DNA of 64,000 nt. It comes from Octopus vulgaris. Taxonomy: Eukaryota. The first letter of the stretch is position 1; each line of letters begins with the position of its first letter. Shown piece after piece: positions 8,010 to 18,145 of this stretch. The notes beneath the pieces were generated by a model. The model did not search any database. It saw only the letters and a program-made list of their open reading frames with translations, and was not told the origin of the DNA. A program made the translations under genes and the position numbers. The stretch covers positions 26,164,001-26,228,000 of the forward strand of contig OX597822.1 in NCBI GenBank assembly GCA_951406725.2, given 5' to 3'.

Positions 8010-8520
8010 TTAAGTTAAGTTAGTTAAGTTAATTTTTTGGCTCAAAAGGCAAAAAGCAAGGCCATGTAGGGGGACATGGAGTTATGTACAGGGTGGTGTT
8101 CATGCAAAGAGTTCAGGCCATTTCTGGTCAAGAGAGACTTTGAACCGAGCGGTCGTCGGCATCTTCACCATCTCGTCCGGCAGCTTATACTATGGATCCG
8201 CAACCCGGACGGAGAAAGCCCCTCTCCTTCGATTGAGATGAAATCGTCGCAGATAGAGCTTTTCGGAGTGACCCCGCAGCCGACGCTCTGGAGCAGGAGT
8301 GAAGAACAGCTCTTTCGAGAGGTTATACTTTCCGCTTATGATGTTATGAGCAAGAATGAGTTCACCACGGCGTCGTCGTTTTTCTAGAGAATAAAGATCG
8401 AGCGTCTTCAGCCTTTCTTCATAAGACAAATGCTTGAGACCAAGCTTCTGGACTCTTTCGAGATGATGTATGTCTTTGAGGAGATAAGGAGAAGAGGCTT
8501 GAATCCCGTACTCCAATATG
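8010..8520 (-). mobile_element. CR1/L2-group LINE 3' fragment
   Basis: LEYG...LERVQK...LSYEERLKTLDLYSLEKRRRRGELI...LRGHSEKL...FSVRV is the RT-thumb/C-terminal region; (CTTAA)n-type tail at about 8010-8032. Confidence 0.9.
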
Positions 8521-10950: not shown

Positions 10951-12086
10951 TTCCTGTGTTATTCAAGGCTACGTGGGTCATCTTTGATGGTATTTTCAGT
11001 GTTAACATCGTTCATTTTGTTTCAGTGCTTTAAACACTTCGATTAATTGTTTTTGTGCTGCTTTGCAGCAATTTGTTTGTACTTCCTCTCCTCACAGAGG
11101 AGGGTCGCATTACTGAAAAAAATGTCTGGAAAAGACTTCAGCTTTTCAGATATGCCGTCTTCAGAGGAAAAGGGTCAAGAGAATGGACAAAAAATTAAAT
11201 GAAGAAAAGAGAAGCCTTGCGGACGTAACAAAGTGCCAGGAAATTTATATTGATATTGAAATTTGAAAATTACAAAAATGTATTAAGTCGGGATGGATTT
11301 GATGTTAAATTGTCCTCCACCCCGCAAGAGATGCTTAATAATATTAAAGAAAGAACAATTTTGTACAAAACGTTTTCAATAGTTAAAGGGAAAACTGACG
11401 TCATGACCATGGGTCAAATAGATAAGGCGTTAAGACCAGAATGGCATGAAATTGTGCACCTTGCGAGAGGCACTAAGTTCGGAGTAGTGGAAGTGATATT
11501 CAAGGACGCAGCAACAGCAAAAAAGCACACAGCGACTACCAAACCTGCCCATCCCCCTCTGACACAGAAAAATGTACAAACAGACAAAAACTCCCAAACT
11601 CCTCCTCCCAGACAAAAAAGAAGTTTTAAAATGCTACGCAGTAATGTATGATGACTCAAATGAAAAACTGTGTAAAGAAGTGTTATCTTGGAAAGACTTT
11701 AAAACAGTTGGAACAACGAGTTTTGACAACATAATGAGATGGCACTGTTGCGCGTTGTGCTCGGATGAACAGAAAGCAAAAATAACAAGATTTAAAAGCG
11801 GATATTGGCGTTGGGAGGTGAAATTGGATTGGGACGTATTACCACAGTATACGTCATATGAGGAAGTGGTGGAAGAATTTGGAATCGATATTCTAGCGGG
11901 AAAGAAGTTTAAAAGGTATAAATGAAACTGCGATGAAGTGGGGCCGAGTGGCTTCATTCCATTTTTCATTTCACTTTTCATATCATTTTTTCATACGTTG
12001 GTTCTAATTTTTTTCTCTGTTTGTATGTCCCACATGTTGTGTAGCGTCCCCTCTATGTTCGCCCCGTAGTGGGTAATAAAAGGATT
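10951..12086 (+). mobile_element. ORF1-only (HAL1-like) non-autonomous retroelement of L1/Tx1 type, 16-bp TSD
   Basis: TSD AGAATCGTT(A/G)GCACGC at 10935-10950 and 12087-12102. Frameshifted ORF from ATG 11122 to 11925 with an RRM-like segment (IVHLARGTKFGVVEVIFKDAATA). No RT. 3' tail matches the Tx1-like LINE at 55097. Confidence 0.7.
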
Positions 12087-12670: not shown

Positions 12671-12859
12671 AAAACAAAACAAAGAACATTATTATCCTGC
12701 TATTACGCTGTTGATATAATCAGTGTAATATATAATGAAATTATTGTATACAGTGCTCAGGTGCACCACAACTTGTCAGAAAGTGCATATAAAGTACATG
12801 CAGCAGTGTAGAAATGTCTGGAAAGTGAACATGCTTGTGTGTGTATGGAGGGGAGAAAA

Positions 12860-15727
12860 TCAAGTGTAGTGCTGGCGAATCTCAGGAAACATGGAAGTTT
12901 TGAAGGATGCAGTGCTCCGACAACTAACAACCGATGCCGGCAGTTTGTTCCACGTTTCAGCAACTCTCAGCGTGAAAAAATGTTTCCTGAAGTCATGGGA
13001 GCTGTGCTGTTTTCTTACTTTGTAAATATGTCCACGGGTGTTAGATGGGTGGATTTTGAAGAGGTGCTCAGAGTTATTGTTTGTGCGATGGTTGATAATT
13101 TTATGGGTGTCTGCCAAGTCAGCTGCCAGACGTCGGAGTTTCAATGTGTCCATGCCCAGGGAAGTAAGGCGTTCAGGATATGGCAAATGCCTGATGGAGG
13201 GTATTCTTTTGGTTGCACGTCGCTGAACAGCTTCCAGACGATTGATGTCCTGGGCAAGATAGGGGTTCCAGACCGGTGATGCAAATTCCAGGTGAGGTAT
13301 TACCATAGCTATATAAAGCCGCAGATAGATAGCCGGAGAGCGGCTCACAAAGGATTTGGTGAGTGATGCCAAGACACCCTCAGCCTTCTTGACAATTTTA
13401 GCGATGTGTTTTGTCCAACGCAAATCACTGTCGACAATAACACCCAGGTCACGTTCACTTGAAGACTTTTTGAGACTAGTGTTGTGGAGGGAGTAGGTGG
13501 ACGCTGAATTTCTCCTCCCAAAATGCATGGTGGTACATTTGTCCACAGCCAGCTTGAGTTGCCAGTCCATGATCCACTGCTGCATTGTGTCCAGGTCTGC
13601 TTGCAATAGAGATCCATAGTGTACAGGATTTAACCTCTTTATTTCGAGGTACAGCTTGATGTCATCTGCATATTTCAGCACTGTGGCATTCTTTAAGTTG
13701 GCATCTATGTCATTAACATATGCAACAAATAAAAGGGGGCCAAGAACAGATCCCTGCGGCACACCAGATGTCATCTCATAGGGCGAAGAGTGCTGTCCTA
13801 GAACTGTGACAACCTCTTTTCGGCCGAAAATAAAGGACTTTAACCAGTTATAGAGTTCGTCTCTTACACCCAACGCAGAAAGCTTCACCATAAGTCTTTT
13901 GTGTGGCACAGAGTTAAAAGCCTTAGCAAAGTCCAGGTAAACAACATCCACCCAGGATCCGCGATCAGTGATTTGGGTAACGTCCTCAAGAAACTCGATG
14001 AGTTGATTACAGCAGCTGGAGTTAGGAATAAATCCGAATTGTGACGGCTGGATGAGGCTGTGAGACTTCCAGAAGTTCCAGAGGGTTTCTCTGATACAGG
14101 ATTCCATCAGTTTGGCGATGCAGCTAGTAAGACTGACGGGGCGATAGTTGGCAGGCGATGTGCGGTCGCCTTTTTTGAACAGAGGGATGACACTGGCAGT
14201 TTTCCACTGTTCTGGAGTAACACCATTGTCAAGACAGAATTGGAAGAATAGAGAAAGTTGGCTTAGAAGAAAGTACCCACTGCGTTTGAGAAGTAGGTAT
14301 GTAACACCATCGAGACCAGGAGAGGCATAATTGCGTTTATTCTTTAGGTGGCGTTGCAGCATTGCTGGTGTAAATTGCATAGAAGATATAGAGTCCGATG
14401 TCAGTGGTGATGATGATGGAACATTTTGGTCTTCGACAGTAAAGATGCCGGTATAGCATCCAGCAATGATTTCTGCACATTCTTCGGGATTGCCAGTAAT
14501 CTGTCCTGTGTGGGGATTGCGAAGGGGACCAACAGGAGAGTGGGGTCTCTGCTTTGAGTGCACATACTTCCAGAACCCTTTGCTGTCAGGGTTAGCTGCA
14601 ATGCGTTGTTCAAATTCAAGCACTGCCTTTTTTGTCACCTGCTTGAGGTGGTTTGCTGACCTATTGCGCTTTTTCCTGTTGCTCTCTGATTTGTGCAATT
14701 TGTATTTCCGTTCAGCATTACGGCGTTCTTTCCTGGCAAGTCGGACTGCTGCAGTCTCCCAAATTGCACTATTGGGTGGTTTTTTGTGCTTGCGTGGTAC
14801 TGATGCTGCACATGCTGCCCATATTGAATTCAGAATGTTCTGGAGTATAGTGTCCACATCTCCAGAGGCATAAAATTCGCGCCAGTTTGGGCGTTGCAGC
14901 TCAGTACAATAAGAGCTCCAGTTTGCTTTATTCCAGTCAAAGCGGGCAATCTGGAGATGGTTGTGTTTTTTGTTACAACCAATCAGAGACAAGTCGGCCA
15001 TGATCATGGAATGATCAGAGTCACCCAAAGGTTCTTCGGTAGCGACACTAATGATTGTTTCAGGAGAAGCGGTAAGTAGCAGATCCAAAGTGTTGTCACC
15101 CCTTGTGGGGGAGGTAACAACTTGGGACCAATTCGAATTCAGCACCAGTTCAAGGAAGTCGTCTGCACTTTGCGGCCAACGGAAGGCCTCCCAGTCAATC
15201 TCAGGGAAATTGAAGTCCCCCGCAAGATACACATATGTGGCTGTTTTCATGGCAGCCGCCCTGAGGATATCAAAAAGCTGTGCGTCTTGGCGATAATTTG
15301 GAGGACGGTAAACGACTCCGAGCAGAAGTGTTGACATGGTCATGTGTACATTGCAGAAAAATACCTCCTGCTGAGATTGGTTCAAATCATCACAGGGGAT
15401 TGCCGATAGACTTGATCGAACATAAATCATCACACCCCCTCCACGGCGATTAATGCGGTTTTTGCGGAACAGGTTGTAGCCGGCTATGCTGAAAACTCCA
15501 TCACAGAGTGCAGAGTGTGCCCACGTTTCCGTGACTGTGATGAAATCTGGGTTGATACTTTTAACGTAGGAGGCAAAAAGATGCACCTTGTTGCATAAAC
15601 TACTGGCATTCAAGGACAGCAGTTTATATCTGGATTTCAGATGATGATATACAGGGGATGGCTGATTGTTCTTGGTTAGTTTCCCAAGATTTTTGCATTG
15701 CCAGTTGTCGTTGTGGGTGTAGTCTGC
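12860..15727 (-). CDS. LINE ORF2: apurinic-like endonuclease plus reverse transcriptase; uninterrupted, no AUG before the endonuclease
   Basis: Endonuclease motifs LNASSL, VTETW, RGGGV, GVVYRPP, GDFN, LDLLL, SDH. RT motifs NYRPVSL, QFGF, LDFAKAFNSV, GVPQGSVLGP, YADD, DLGV. The frame stays open upstream of the TTG at 15613 to a stop at 15728-15730. Confidence 0.95.
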   Translation of the reverse strand, partial: ADYTHNDNWQCKNLGKLTKNNQPSPVYHHLKSRYKLLSLNASSLCNKVHLFASYVKSINPDFITVTETWAHSALCDGVFSIAGYNLFRKNRINRRGGGVMIYVRSSLSAIPCDDLNQSQQEVFFCNVHMTMSTLLLGVVYRPPNYRQDAQLFDILRAAAMKTATYVYLAGDFNFPEIDWEAFRWPQSADDFLELVLNSNWSQVVTSPTRGDNTLDLLLTASPETIISVATEEPLGDSDHSMIMADLSLIGCNKKHNHLQIARFDWNKANWSSYCTELQRPNWREFYASGDVDTILQNILNSIWAACAASVPRKHKKPPNSAIWETAAVRLARKERRNAERKYKLHKSESNRKKRNRSANHLKQVTKKAVLEFEQRIAANPDSKGFWKYVHSKQRPHSPVGPLRNPHTGQITGNPEECAEIIAGCYTGIFTVEDQNVPSSSPLTSDSISSMQFTPAMLQRHLKNKRNYASPGLDGVTYLLLKRSGYFLLSQLSLFFQFCLDNGVTPEQWKTASVIPLFKKGDRTSPANYRPVSLTSCIAKLMESCIRETLWNFWKSHSLIQPSQFGFIPNSSCCNQLIEFLEDVTQITDRGSWVDVVYLDFAKAFNSVPHKRLMVKLSALGVRDELYNWLKSFIFGRKEVVTVLGQHSSPYEMTSGVPQGSVLGPLLFVAYVNDIDANLKNATVLKYADDIKLYLEIKRLNPVHYGSLLQADLDTMQQWIMDWQLKLAVDKCTTMHFGRRNSASTYSLHNTSLKKSSSERDLGVIVDSDLRWTKHIAKIVKKAEGVLASLTKSFVSRSPAIYLRLYIAMVIPHLEFASPVWNPYLAQDINRLEAVQRRATKRIPSIRHLPYPERLTSLGMDTLKLRRLAADLADTHKIINHRTNNNSEHLFKIHPSNTRGHIYKVRKQHSSHDFRKHFFTLRVAETWNKLPASVVSCRSTASFKTSMFPEIRQHYT

Positions 15728-15840
15728 TCAGTCCAACTGGCATCCCTTATCCACGACTCACCAGACTTGACGAATTTCCAGATCTGCCCATCATCGCGGA
15801 GGCTAAAACTCTTATGCATCCTATCGGACAACATCCCGTG
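15676..15840 (-). CDS. C-terminal remnant of LINE ORF1 (...HGMLSDRMHKSFSLRDDGQIWKFVKSGESWIRDASWTEQTTPTTTTGNAKILGN*)
   Basis: Open frame directly upstream of and overlapping ORF2, ending TTG GGA AAC TAA; the ORF1 assignment is positional. Confidence 0.65.
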   Translation of the reverse strand, partial: HGMLSDRMHKSFSLRDDGQIWKFVKSGESWIRDASWTEQTTPTTTTGNAKILGN

Positions 15841-16134
15841 ATCTAGGATGAAAAGTATTCTTGCTTTCTCTTATAAAACCTTTCCTTGCTGTTAATAACT
15901 GTCCTTACTTTGTATCAAACACTTTCTGGATATTTCTTACTAATCCACATAAATAGCTTTTCCGCATTGTATTCACTCTCAACTTAAGATCTAGCTTTCG
16001 AAGACTTACTCTCAATTTCTTCGTAGCAGTCGCCAAGTCACAGAACGATAACTGGAAGGATCATGGCTTTGTTAATTTTATTCCAGTATTTCAGAGTTTC
16101 ATACTTCATATTGGCGTAATGCACTACCTTTTCT

Positions 16135-16935
16135 GGATCTTTTCATTTTGAACGGCAGATGTCAACACAATTTCTAGTTAACTAAACACTTTTAAACTTC
16201 GTATACTGGTAGAATGTGTTTATAAAACATCGTTTTTTCTTGGCTTTATTGAGGAAATTCTGTAGCTTGTAAGATATTTCGTCAGAAAATCCGAGCATTT
16301 CGGCAATTTTAACCAATCGATTACCTCCATTCAACTAAAATCATTTGCTGCGTCTAAAACTGAGATAACATCCTGTAACTAACCCTAAACCTCCCCCTAA
16401 CCCTAATTTTTTTTTCTTAATTGTTAAATTAATTTAATTGTTACGCGTGTAAAAAAACCCGAAAGCAATGGAAAATGATTTAAACAATTAACAAACAAAA
16501 TAATTCTATAATTTTATACACACGCTTTCCGTACGTATACGGAAAGCGTGTGTTACGGAAAGCGTGTGTATAAAATTATAGAATTATTTTGTTTGTTAAT
16601 TGTTTAAATCATTTTCCATTGCTTTCGGGCTTTTTTACACGCGTAACAATTAAATTAATTTAACAATTAAGAAAAAAAATTAGGGTTAGGGTTAGGTTGA
16701 GGGGTAGTGACAGGATGTTGTCTCAGTTTTAGACGCAGCAAATGATTTTAGCTCAATTAGAGACAATTGATTGGTTAAAATTCGAAAAATTAAACTACGT
16801 TAAACAAGCAAATTACAATTTTCTCAAGAAAGTCAAAAGAAAAAAATGTTTTATTTTGACACATTCTACCAGTATACGAAGTTTTAAAGTGTTTAATTAA
16901 CTAGATATTGTCTGCCGTTCAAGAGGAAAAGATCC
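16135..16935. mobile_element. MITE copy 3, GGATC-terminal family, complete 800-bp palindrome (foldback), 8-bp TSD
   Basis: TSD CCTTTTCT at 16127-16134 and 16936-16943; arms are inverted along the whole length; CCCTAA/TTAGGG repeats in both arms. Confidence 0.92.
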
Positions 16936-17065: not shown

Positions 17066-18145
17066 GGGTCATCACAGGTTAGTAATCCCAGATGCGTCAT
17101 CGTGCATAGAGGCGACCAGCTCCACCAGTGCTCCCCATCGCTGGCGGTTCCGTGCCAACTCCTCTGCATCATCTAAGATGAGGTTGAATCTCTGGAGATC
17201 TTTCTTAATCACGTCCAACCACCTCGTGCGGGGCTTACCACGAGACCTCTTCTGACCCACAGCTGCTGCGTCGAACGTGAGTAAGGCCCTGGTAGGTTTA
17301 TTTGGCCGGAGGCAGAGGACATGTCCGTACCAGCATATGCGGCGAATAGCAGTGAGATAGGAGGCTGCAGGTGTTGGTGGCACCCAGGTAGATGAAGGAA
17401 CTGACGAGCTCTACGATGTTGGGACCAAAATGGAGAGGAGGCCTGAACCATCGCCGAAATGTATCGGCTTGGTCTTCACCCAACTCATTTGAAGCCCAAG
17501 TTTTGCTGATTCCTCTCGGCATATGGTCAGTGCATCCCTTAGCTGGTCGATCAAGTTGCTGAATAGGGTGGTACCGTTTGCACACGCCAGATTGGTAAGG
17601 TGGTAGTCCCCGAAGGTAACGCCAGACACTCGATCACAGACCTTGGTCATTAGATAATCGATGACACAGTTGACGAAGTCGGGGCGGTCACGCAACCCTG
17701 TCTGACTCCGCTGATGATGAGGAACCAACTGGAGTCCTTTTCCTTCACCCGCACGCAGCTCTCGGCACTCCTATAGGGCTGTTGGAACAGGGCGGTGATC
17801 GTGGGAGGCGTACCGACGAGCTTGAGAGTTTTTCAGAAGGATGCATGGTCGATCATGTCGAATGCTGCATTGAGGTCGACGAAGGTGATATAGAGTTCTG
17901 TGCGGAACTCCTGAGATCTTTCAATAATGAGATGAAGGGCAAAATTTGGTCATCGGTAGATCGATTTGGCATGAGCCCGGCTTGTTGTGGGTGGCGTCTG
18001 CTTCTAATGGCAGGAAGAGCGCGGCTGAGGAGAATCCTAATGAGGAGCTTACCCGAGATGAAGAAGAGAGTAATTAATGCCCTTGTAGTTGCTGCAGACA
18101 AGTTTGTCGCCTTTCCGTTTCAAGGAGGGGAAAAGGATGGATAGG
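17066..18145 (-). mobile_element. Degenerate RTE-clade LINE, 3' part
   Basis: QQAGLMPNRSTDDQI, FVDLNAAFD, WYGHVL...RSRGKPRTRWLDVIKKDL...ARNRQRW motifs spread across several frames. Confidence 0.88.

Follow-up and report, generated by a model that had tools for sequence, protein, structure and literature searches.

An ORF1-ORF2 junction with a putative -1 frameshift site in a CR1-type LINE of Octopus vulgaris

Slippery heptamers of the G_GGA_AAC class direct -1 ribosomal frameshifting in SRV-1 and PEG10. This heptamer is among the most shift-prone for mammalian ribosomes, and the second open reading frame (ORF2) of long interspersed nuclear elements (LINEs) is thought to use unusual initiation (PMC5009743). 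How this frame is translated has been stated to be an open question (PMC3894237), answered only for a few elements and by reinitiation, this being the established route in L1 and SART1 (PMC2881922, PMC3894237), with L1 ORF2 tolerating the loss of its AUG (PMC1965478). Here we describe the ORF1-ORF2 junction of a young, 5'-truncated CR1-type LINE copy which lies on the minus strand, at 12730..15812 (3' end approximate, estimated from the sequence), of a 64,000-nucleotide (nt) stretch of Octopus vulgaris DNA (contig OX597822.1, positions 26,164,001 to 26,228,000; hereafter the window). Comparison with related loci gives good support to the reading that this CR1-type family probably makes its ORF2 product by programmed -1 frameshifting at G_GGA_AAC, as an ORF1-ORF2 fusion. 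The same proposal had been made in an original prediction based on the letters of the window, and it is now supported by conservation of the site in the closest relative, L001, and by the enrichment of in-phase sites over more distant relatives.

Layout of the junction and state of the copy

On the minus strand the junction reads ATC TTG GGA AAC TAA, with the heptamer GGGAAAC, the predicted -1 shift site, standing in ORF1 phase as G_GGA_AAC at 15679..15685 and the ORF1 stop codon UAA directly 3' of it at 15676..15678. ORF2 occupies the -1 frame, runs for 955 codons from stop to stop (12860..15727, minus strand; 939 of them after the predicted shift), overlaps ORF1 by 49 nt and is open from the heptamer onward, so that an X_XXY_YYZ heptamer in register with ORF1 is combined with an open -1 frame. 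Its product contains an APE-type endonuclease (15011..15610, minus strand; Pfam PF03372, residues 40-239, E 1.3e-12) and a reverse transcriptase (13484..14173, minus strand; Pfam PF00078, residues 519-748, E 4.5e-36). Pfam matches are confined to PF03372/PF14529 and PF00078, with no RNase H, which is the domain layout of the CR1 lineage, and no protease domain was detected by Pfam. The CR1 label is our reading of this domain content, of the ORF1 types of the relatives and of C-terminal motifs of ORF2 that we take to be CR1-like.

The first in-frame AUG of ORF2 (15428..15430, minus strand; residue 100, in the sequence GGGVM) is found 248 nt 3' of the ORF1 stop, within the endonuclease and after its NASS (residue 40) and TETW motifs, and no AUG overlaps or adjoins the stop in the manner of SART1-type coupling. 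In all of this the original prediction, which had described the heptamer with its adjacent stop, an AUG-less ORF2 open across the site and a first Met inside the endonuclease, agrees with the sequence. It had also named an in-frame AUG ahead of the endonuclease as evidence against frameshifting, and none is created by variants of at least 3% of depth in 15590-15812 (substitutions and indels, read by hand).

The copy itself is truncated at 15812, because the depth of the family ends there and the family contigs diverge there. Contigs of eight public runs (X1, X2, X4, X5, X6, X12, X16 and X17) were placed on the region for depth and variants; no run is on record as RNA, and three that were presumed to be RNA do not bear on expression. 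Between 15300 and about 15810 the depth stands at about 50 to 550 times the single-copy level, to which it drops further out (20.5 at 15820-15860 in X2; 67.4 at 15849-16092 in X1), and the family contigs part from the window sequence behind 15807-15812, their loose ends carrying the ORF1 frame on with no stop for the roughly 10 codons shown. The LINE had been described as intact, which does not hold: the full 5' untranslated region and ORF1 are absent, and what is retained of ORF1 is a 3' remnant of 44 codons plus the stop (15676..15810, minus strand), homologous to the ORF1 C-terminus of L001. The truncated copy would not itself make the fusion protein, because the promoter and the start of ORF1 are missing from it. 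We rejected the view that the copy contains an ancient ORF1 decayed by mutation, the upstream stops falling in single-copy flank, and a homology search with the 64-residue upstream frame, about 19 residues of which are flank, gave no match.

The LINE family is young: a contig over the junction with one differing letter reaches a depth of 1432 against a single-copy depth of 20.5 in X2, corresponding to about 70 near-identical copies. Since the family is young and high-copy, ORF2 has been expressed recently. No target-site duplication was seen by eye at the copy, and the 64-kb window holds no second copy of the family, only a distant CR1-like fragment of an ORF2 3' part at 8109-8516, 35% identical to the window ORF2. 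The flank at 15813-16134 is single-copy, and a flank contig of X1 has 11 letters that misfit beside the LINE junction, possibly a sign of insertion polymorphism.

Strict in-phase heptamers are found 18 times per 13,539 codons of ORF1 bodies, corresponding to a chance of about 2% for an overlap of 16 codons. Because of this chance level the heptamer of the window alone is only suggestive, and the relatives carry the case.

Phase and slip sites among the relatives

Metagenome contigs were searched with an alignment of the endonuclease, and the best 80 of at least 422 confirmed stretches were used. The closest relative among the matches listed, L001, is 58% identical in the endonuclease, and its ORF1 C-terminus is homologous to that of the window (21/42 residues identical, E 6e-15 for the pair), after which the two diverge. 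ORF1 of L001 ends CAG GGA AAC TAG, with the identical heptamer and a UAG at the place of the UAA, and the two loci share the exact nine-base island GGGAAACTA, whose flanks match at 22/84 positions (9/35 before it and 13/49 after it); the spacing to the endonuclease is also equal, at 50 nt. Loss of the heptamer, which the original prediction would have counted against frameshifting, is not what is seen in L001, where both heptamer and stop are kept. About 200 nt upstream (about 1065-1090) the ORF1 frame of L001 carries a lesion beside an in-phase A_AAU_UUC, probably a one-base lesion, with a second shift site as the alternative. Pfam gave no match above the cut-off for this ORF1, whose only look-alikes are unnamed ones in the Atlas.

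These observations bear on the reading that the heptamer is incidental, reflecting Gly-Asn coding or a relic, with ORF2 made by way of an internal ribosome entry site, splicing or help in trans. It is favoured by the lack of a stimulator in the window family and by the chance of about 2% in an overlap this long, and the copy came to notice post hoc, in a reading of many windows. It nevertheless appears highly improbable, as the island shared with L001 stands amid flanks matching at chance level and in a peptide tail that is otherwise unconserved, the pattern holds across the clade, and the family is a young, high-copy one with recent ORF2 expression.

Altogether, selection on endonuclease motifs, blind to the junction, yielded 82 loci; the comparison covers this one LINE clade, and viral contigs gave no relative. 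An upstream ORF of at least 200 codons is present in 55 of the 82, and relative to it ORF2 stands in -1 in 48, in +1 in 5 and in frame in 2. After dereplication at 90% ORF2 is in -1 in 43/50 (binomial p 2e-14; shared ancestry among the relatives makes such p-values overstate certainty), and clustering at 50% leaves 11/13. In 24/43 the overlap contains a strict X_XXY_YYZ heptamer in ORF1 phase, versus 3 and 1 in the other phases. The in-phase sites number 27, where the rate in ORF1 bodies would predict 2.3, and after clustering at 50% the counts are 8/11 versus 1 and 0. A test that needs no ORF1 calls and leaves out loci with less than 130 nt upstream found 39/71 in phase versus 12 and 11, two short, distant loci on genome contigs being left out of both this count and the tree. 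Frame lesions misled the automatic ORF1 rule at some loci, L001 among them (counted as '+1', against the hypothesis), and inspection of the miscalled loci revealed in-phase sites in most.

The type of site varies by lineage, A_AAA_AAC, G_GAA_AAC, U_UUU_UUA, U_UUA_AAC and G_GGA_AAC all being found, and in the endonuclease tree, which was built from unnamed loci only, site types follow lineages. Because some of the sites sit in conserved peptides, codon choice was tested over 51 loci, the window and L001 excluded. Lys-Asn is written as A_AAA_AAC in 18/27 cases in the overlap versus 11/200 elsewhere, Glu-Asn as G_GAA_AAC in 11/19 versus 15/166, Leu-Asn as U_UUA_AAC in 3/6 versus 6/241 and Phe-Leu as U_UUU_UUA in 5/12 versus 13/162. 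Conservation of site and phase beyond the constraint on the protein is therefore seen in L001 and in the phase and codon-choice controls, with few cases for G_GGA_AAC itself.

Among loci picked by a peptide motif of ORF1, A_AAA_AAC is present in 20/20 (two near-identical pairs among them), and four damaged or cut loci of the same ORF1 type were missed by the motif (L009, L046, L048 and L063). In 19 of these 20 no stop interrupts the -1 frame between the site and the endonuclease, a stretch of 59-92 codons, and upstream of the site this frame has 2-12 stops per 100 codons. The G_GAA_AAC lineage has G as the base before the site in 16/16 loci, across 7 codons, and a GUGGUAGG motif 12 nt after the site which is invariant at synonymous positions in 16/16 (L003, L006, L011, L015, L018, L019, L020, L023, L033, L034, L040, L042, L043, L049, L057 and L064). 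The Val-Val pair at this distance is GUG GUA in 16/16, the background counts being 671 and 845 among 3,095 Val codons, and GUGGUAGG could act as a stimulator that is unstructured or bound by protein, or reflect a constraint from the -1 frame.

The ORF1 types of the relatives also differ, with PHD in 5/16 scanned and GDSL esterase in 5/16 (Pfam), so that slip sites are spread over several ORF1 types and positions. The esterase-type ORF1s were seen in CR1-like loci from environmental metagenomes (L007, L008, L012, L036, L047, L053 and kin; five confirmed by Pfam), although PMC4120745 (Metcalfe and Casane) reports such ORF1s only in vertebrate subgroups.

An alternative explanation for the synthesis of ORF2 protein (ORF2p) is termination-reinitiation, or AUG-independent initiation at a near-cognate codon such as a CUG at the start of the endonuclease, either of which would release free ORF2p. 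Besides the precedents of L1 and SART1 given above, in-frame CUG codons do occur between the stop of the window and the endonuclease, in L001 an AUG precedes the conserved endonuclease Asn by two codons, and some AUG lies upstream of this Asn in 22/43 relatives, the last two points counting against frameshifting. We nevertheless regard this alternative as unlikely, since it leaves unexplained the -1 phase (43/50), the synonymous choice of slippery codons and the 59-92 stop-free -1 codons which reach exactly to A_AAA_AAC. There is, moreover, no UAAUG-type overlap in the window, the AUG of L001 is kept neither in the window nor in P0001, and 21/43 relatives have no AUG before the first conserved endonuclease Asn.

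A third alternative is transcriptional slippage, in which the polymerase adds a G (or an A/U) within the run, so that the two ORFs share a frame in a minority of mRNAs. It draws on a minority of family depth with an extra G in the slippery run (15683-15685), found in 4/8 runs at depths of 1,759/10,597 (X1), 1,120/12,302 (X4) and 721/10,527 (X5), i.e., about 26, 22 and 20 single-copy depths, and 11.9/70.4 in X17. The extra G brings the two ORFs into a single frame, with the junction that the predicted slip would give, and a fixed five-G run occupies the homologous site in one lineage of relatives. With one contig per run, the source of the extra G may be a sub-family, a duplicated segment or recurrent slippage.

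Cis preference is known from L1 work, and if only mRNAs with the added base yielded ORF2p and copied themselves in cis, the extra base should have become the majority, yet most copies are without it. The extra G is unlisted in X6, X2, X12 and X16, and is found on one contig per run where present, and a run of three G is presumably short for polymerase stutter. Transcriptional slippage would also need no X_XXY_YYZ rule in ORF1 phase, yet the sites of the relatives fit that rule. It is therefore considered quite improbable.

Downstream structure, proposed mechanism and its limits

The original prediction had pointed to an 11-base-pair (bp) stem and a small hairpin downstream of the heptamer (15595..15642, minus strand; hairpin 15642-15628, stem 15627-15595). 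Both fold as described, the hairpin starting 36 nt and the stem 51 nt after the heptamer; they are likely not a frameshift stimulator, and the stem was rejected in this role. The 99-nt stem region folds at z -1.09, with 28/200 shuffles as good, and variants of the family break two pairs: at 15604 nearly all family depth carries another base (24,804/25,250 in X1), so that this pair exists only through the deviation of the window copy, and a variant at 15626 (1,203/3,403 in X2; 40/40 in X16) breaks the second. L001 has no homologous stem, and Rfam returned only a sub-threshold snoRNA match on the other strand.

A stem-loop or pseudoknot about 5-9 nt downstream of the site, where stimulators are expected, is not found in the window. 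It is found in L001, whose hairpin starts 5 nt after the heptamer (z -3.5), and in 4/12 esterase-type loci (z below -2); hairpins occur mainly where the site abuts the stop.

In the frameshifting mechanism that we propose, most ribosomes on full-length members of the family would stop at UAA and release ORF1 protein (ORF1p), while in a minority tRNA-Gly and tRNA-Asn would re-pair on GGG AAA and translation would go on. The predicted junction is ILGN-LTK or ILGK-LTK, followed by 939 ORF2 residues, and the ratio of ORF1p to fusion would be fixed, with ORF1p abundant and the fusion minor, in the manner of Gag and Gag-Pol. The likeliest helper would be slow termination at the stop beside the heptamer, because no nearby structure was found, and the fusion would presumably stay whole, because ORF2 has no detected protease domain. 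From the layout, the lack of a usable AUG, the conservation and the codon bias we infer the slip, its rate and the fusion.

In addition to the upstream AUGs and the non-independence of the relatives described above, several points weigh against this proposal. The missing stimulator is the main mechanistic gap, leaving the pause unexplained in the window family, where no in-range stimulator was found (z -0.45, no stem of at least 5 bp at +4 to +14, no pseudoknot). Over 43 sites, a set from which L046 and L049 were left out as damaged, the downstream fold is also unremarkable (mean z -0.43, with 7 below -2 versus 3 and 3 in controls), and an alignment fold of five related hairpins is weak, with 2/9 pairs changed on both sides, the fold being probably out of register.

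Conservation within the family says little: no substitutions at 3% of depth or more are present in 15672-15686 (4 runs), and variants at this level touch only about 20/223 positions of 15590-15812. The case for the G_GGA_AAC lineage rests on one relative (L001) and one distant locus (L035), because the Gly-Asn codon test (G_GGA_AAC in 1/5 versus 4/125, p 0.18) is not significant. In one lineage the homologous position is taken by a non-canonical G_GGG_GAN, seen in 10 non-redundant loci and 6-30 nt after the -1 frame opens (at the ORF1 ends of L002, L004, L013, L014, L022, L025, L026, L028, L059 and L074), which may be a site of single-tRNA slippage or of polymerase stutter; L035, a member of this lineage, has G_GGA_AAC instead. 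We defined the G_GAA_AAC and G_GGG_GAN classes only once the data had been seen, and the case as a whole is made by sequence comparison.

For the clade as a whole, we lean slightly towards the view that CR1-type LINEs have expressed ORF2 by -1 frameshifting since their common ancestor, yielding a Gag-Pol-like fusion. It would have survived the replacement of ORF1 (PHD, esterase or other), with the slip site re-evolving at the stop or about 20 or about 60 codons before it, with a structure-free stimulator in some lineages (the adjacent stop, or GUGGUAGG 12 nt downstream) and with G_GGG_GAN in one lineage. If this is so, a sub-family with the extra G would be a natural always-fused control. The comparison yields five defined site types, with some sites that have no folded stimulator.

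CR1-group elements are described as the dominant retrotransposons in most vertebrates (PMC13343379). If they do use -1 frameshifting, ORF2p would be a fusion with ORF1 and annotated ORF2 starts would be wrong, there would be a new reason for ORF1 to be required in cis, and the elements could be open to restriction by host factors of viral frameshifting.

Neighbouring elements and comparison with known systems

Other repeats were observed around the LINE copy. At 16135-16935 there is an 800-bp near-palindromic element with an 8-bp direct repeat, AGAAAAGG, at 16943-16936 and 16134-16127; its ends exceed 10,000 times single-copy depth and short TAACCC-like repeats lie inside it, and it is likely a very abundant miniature inverted-repeat transposable element of a DNA transposon. 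A decayed fragment of another LINE, presumably RTE-like by its motifs, occupies 17070-17770 on the minus strand. On the plus strand, at 11229-11925, two overlapping open frames of 140 and 120 codons look like one broken coding sequence.

A close parallel in layout is offered by the gag-pro and gag-pol junctions of retroviruses and long terminal repeat (LTR) elements, in which an enzyme ORF in the -1 frame likewise follows a structural ORF, with no AUG and with an in-phase X_XXY_YYZ heptamer near the stop. The window element differs from these systems in being a non-LTR, APE-type LINE, in having no pseudoknot or stem 5-9 nt downstream in its family and in having no detected ORF2 protease. With L1 and SART1 it shares a bicistronic LINE RNA in which output of ORF2 depends on translation of ORF1, whereas those elements make free ORF2p from ORFs that are non-overlapping or stop-start-coupled (PMC2881922, PMC3894237), and the ORFs of the window overlap by 49 nt with no AUG.

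Its domain organization is that of CR1-lineage LINEs (Jockey superfamily), with two ORFs, an ORF2 with APE endonuclease and reverse transcriptase, and PHD or esterase ORF1s among the relatives. No word starting with 'frameshift' or 'overlap' occurs in the available passages of PMC4120745 or of a 2026 survey of CR1 elements (PMC13343379), and a literature search whose coverage omits most subscription and 1990s CR1 papers, which may hold such a proposal, found none for CR1 frameshifting.

The original prediction had stated that studied LINEs use reinitiation or coupling, which is correct for L1 and SART1 and omits the Dictyostelium elements TRE5-A and TRE3-A. These are also APE-type non-LTR elements, and according to a legend in PMC5911963 they require a -1 frameshift for ORF2, so that the idea of frameshifting has a precedent among LINEs. 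They differ from the window element in being amoeba elements that target tRNA genes and carry a zinc finger in ORF2 (PMC5911963).

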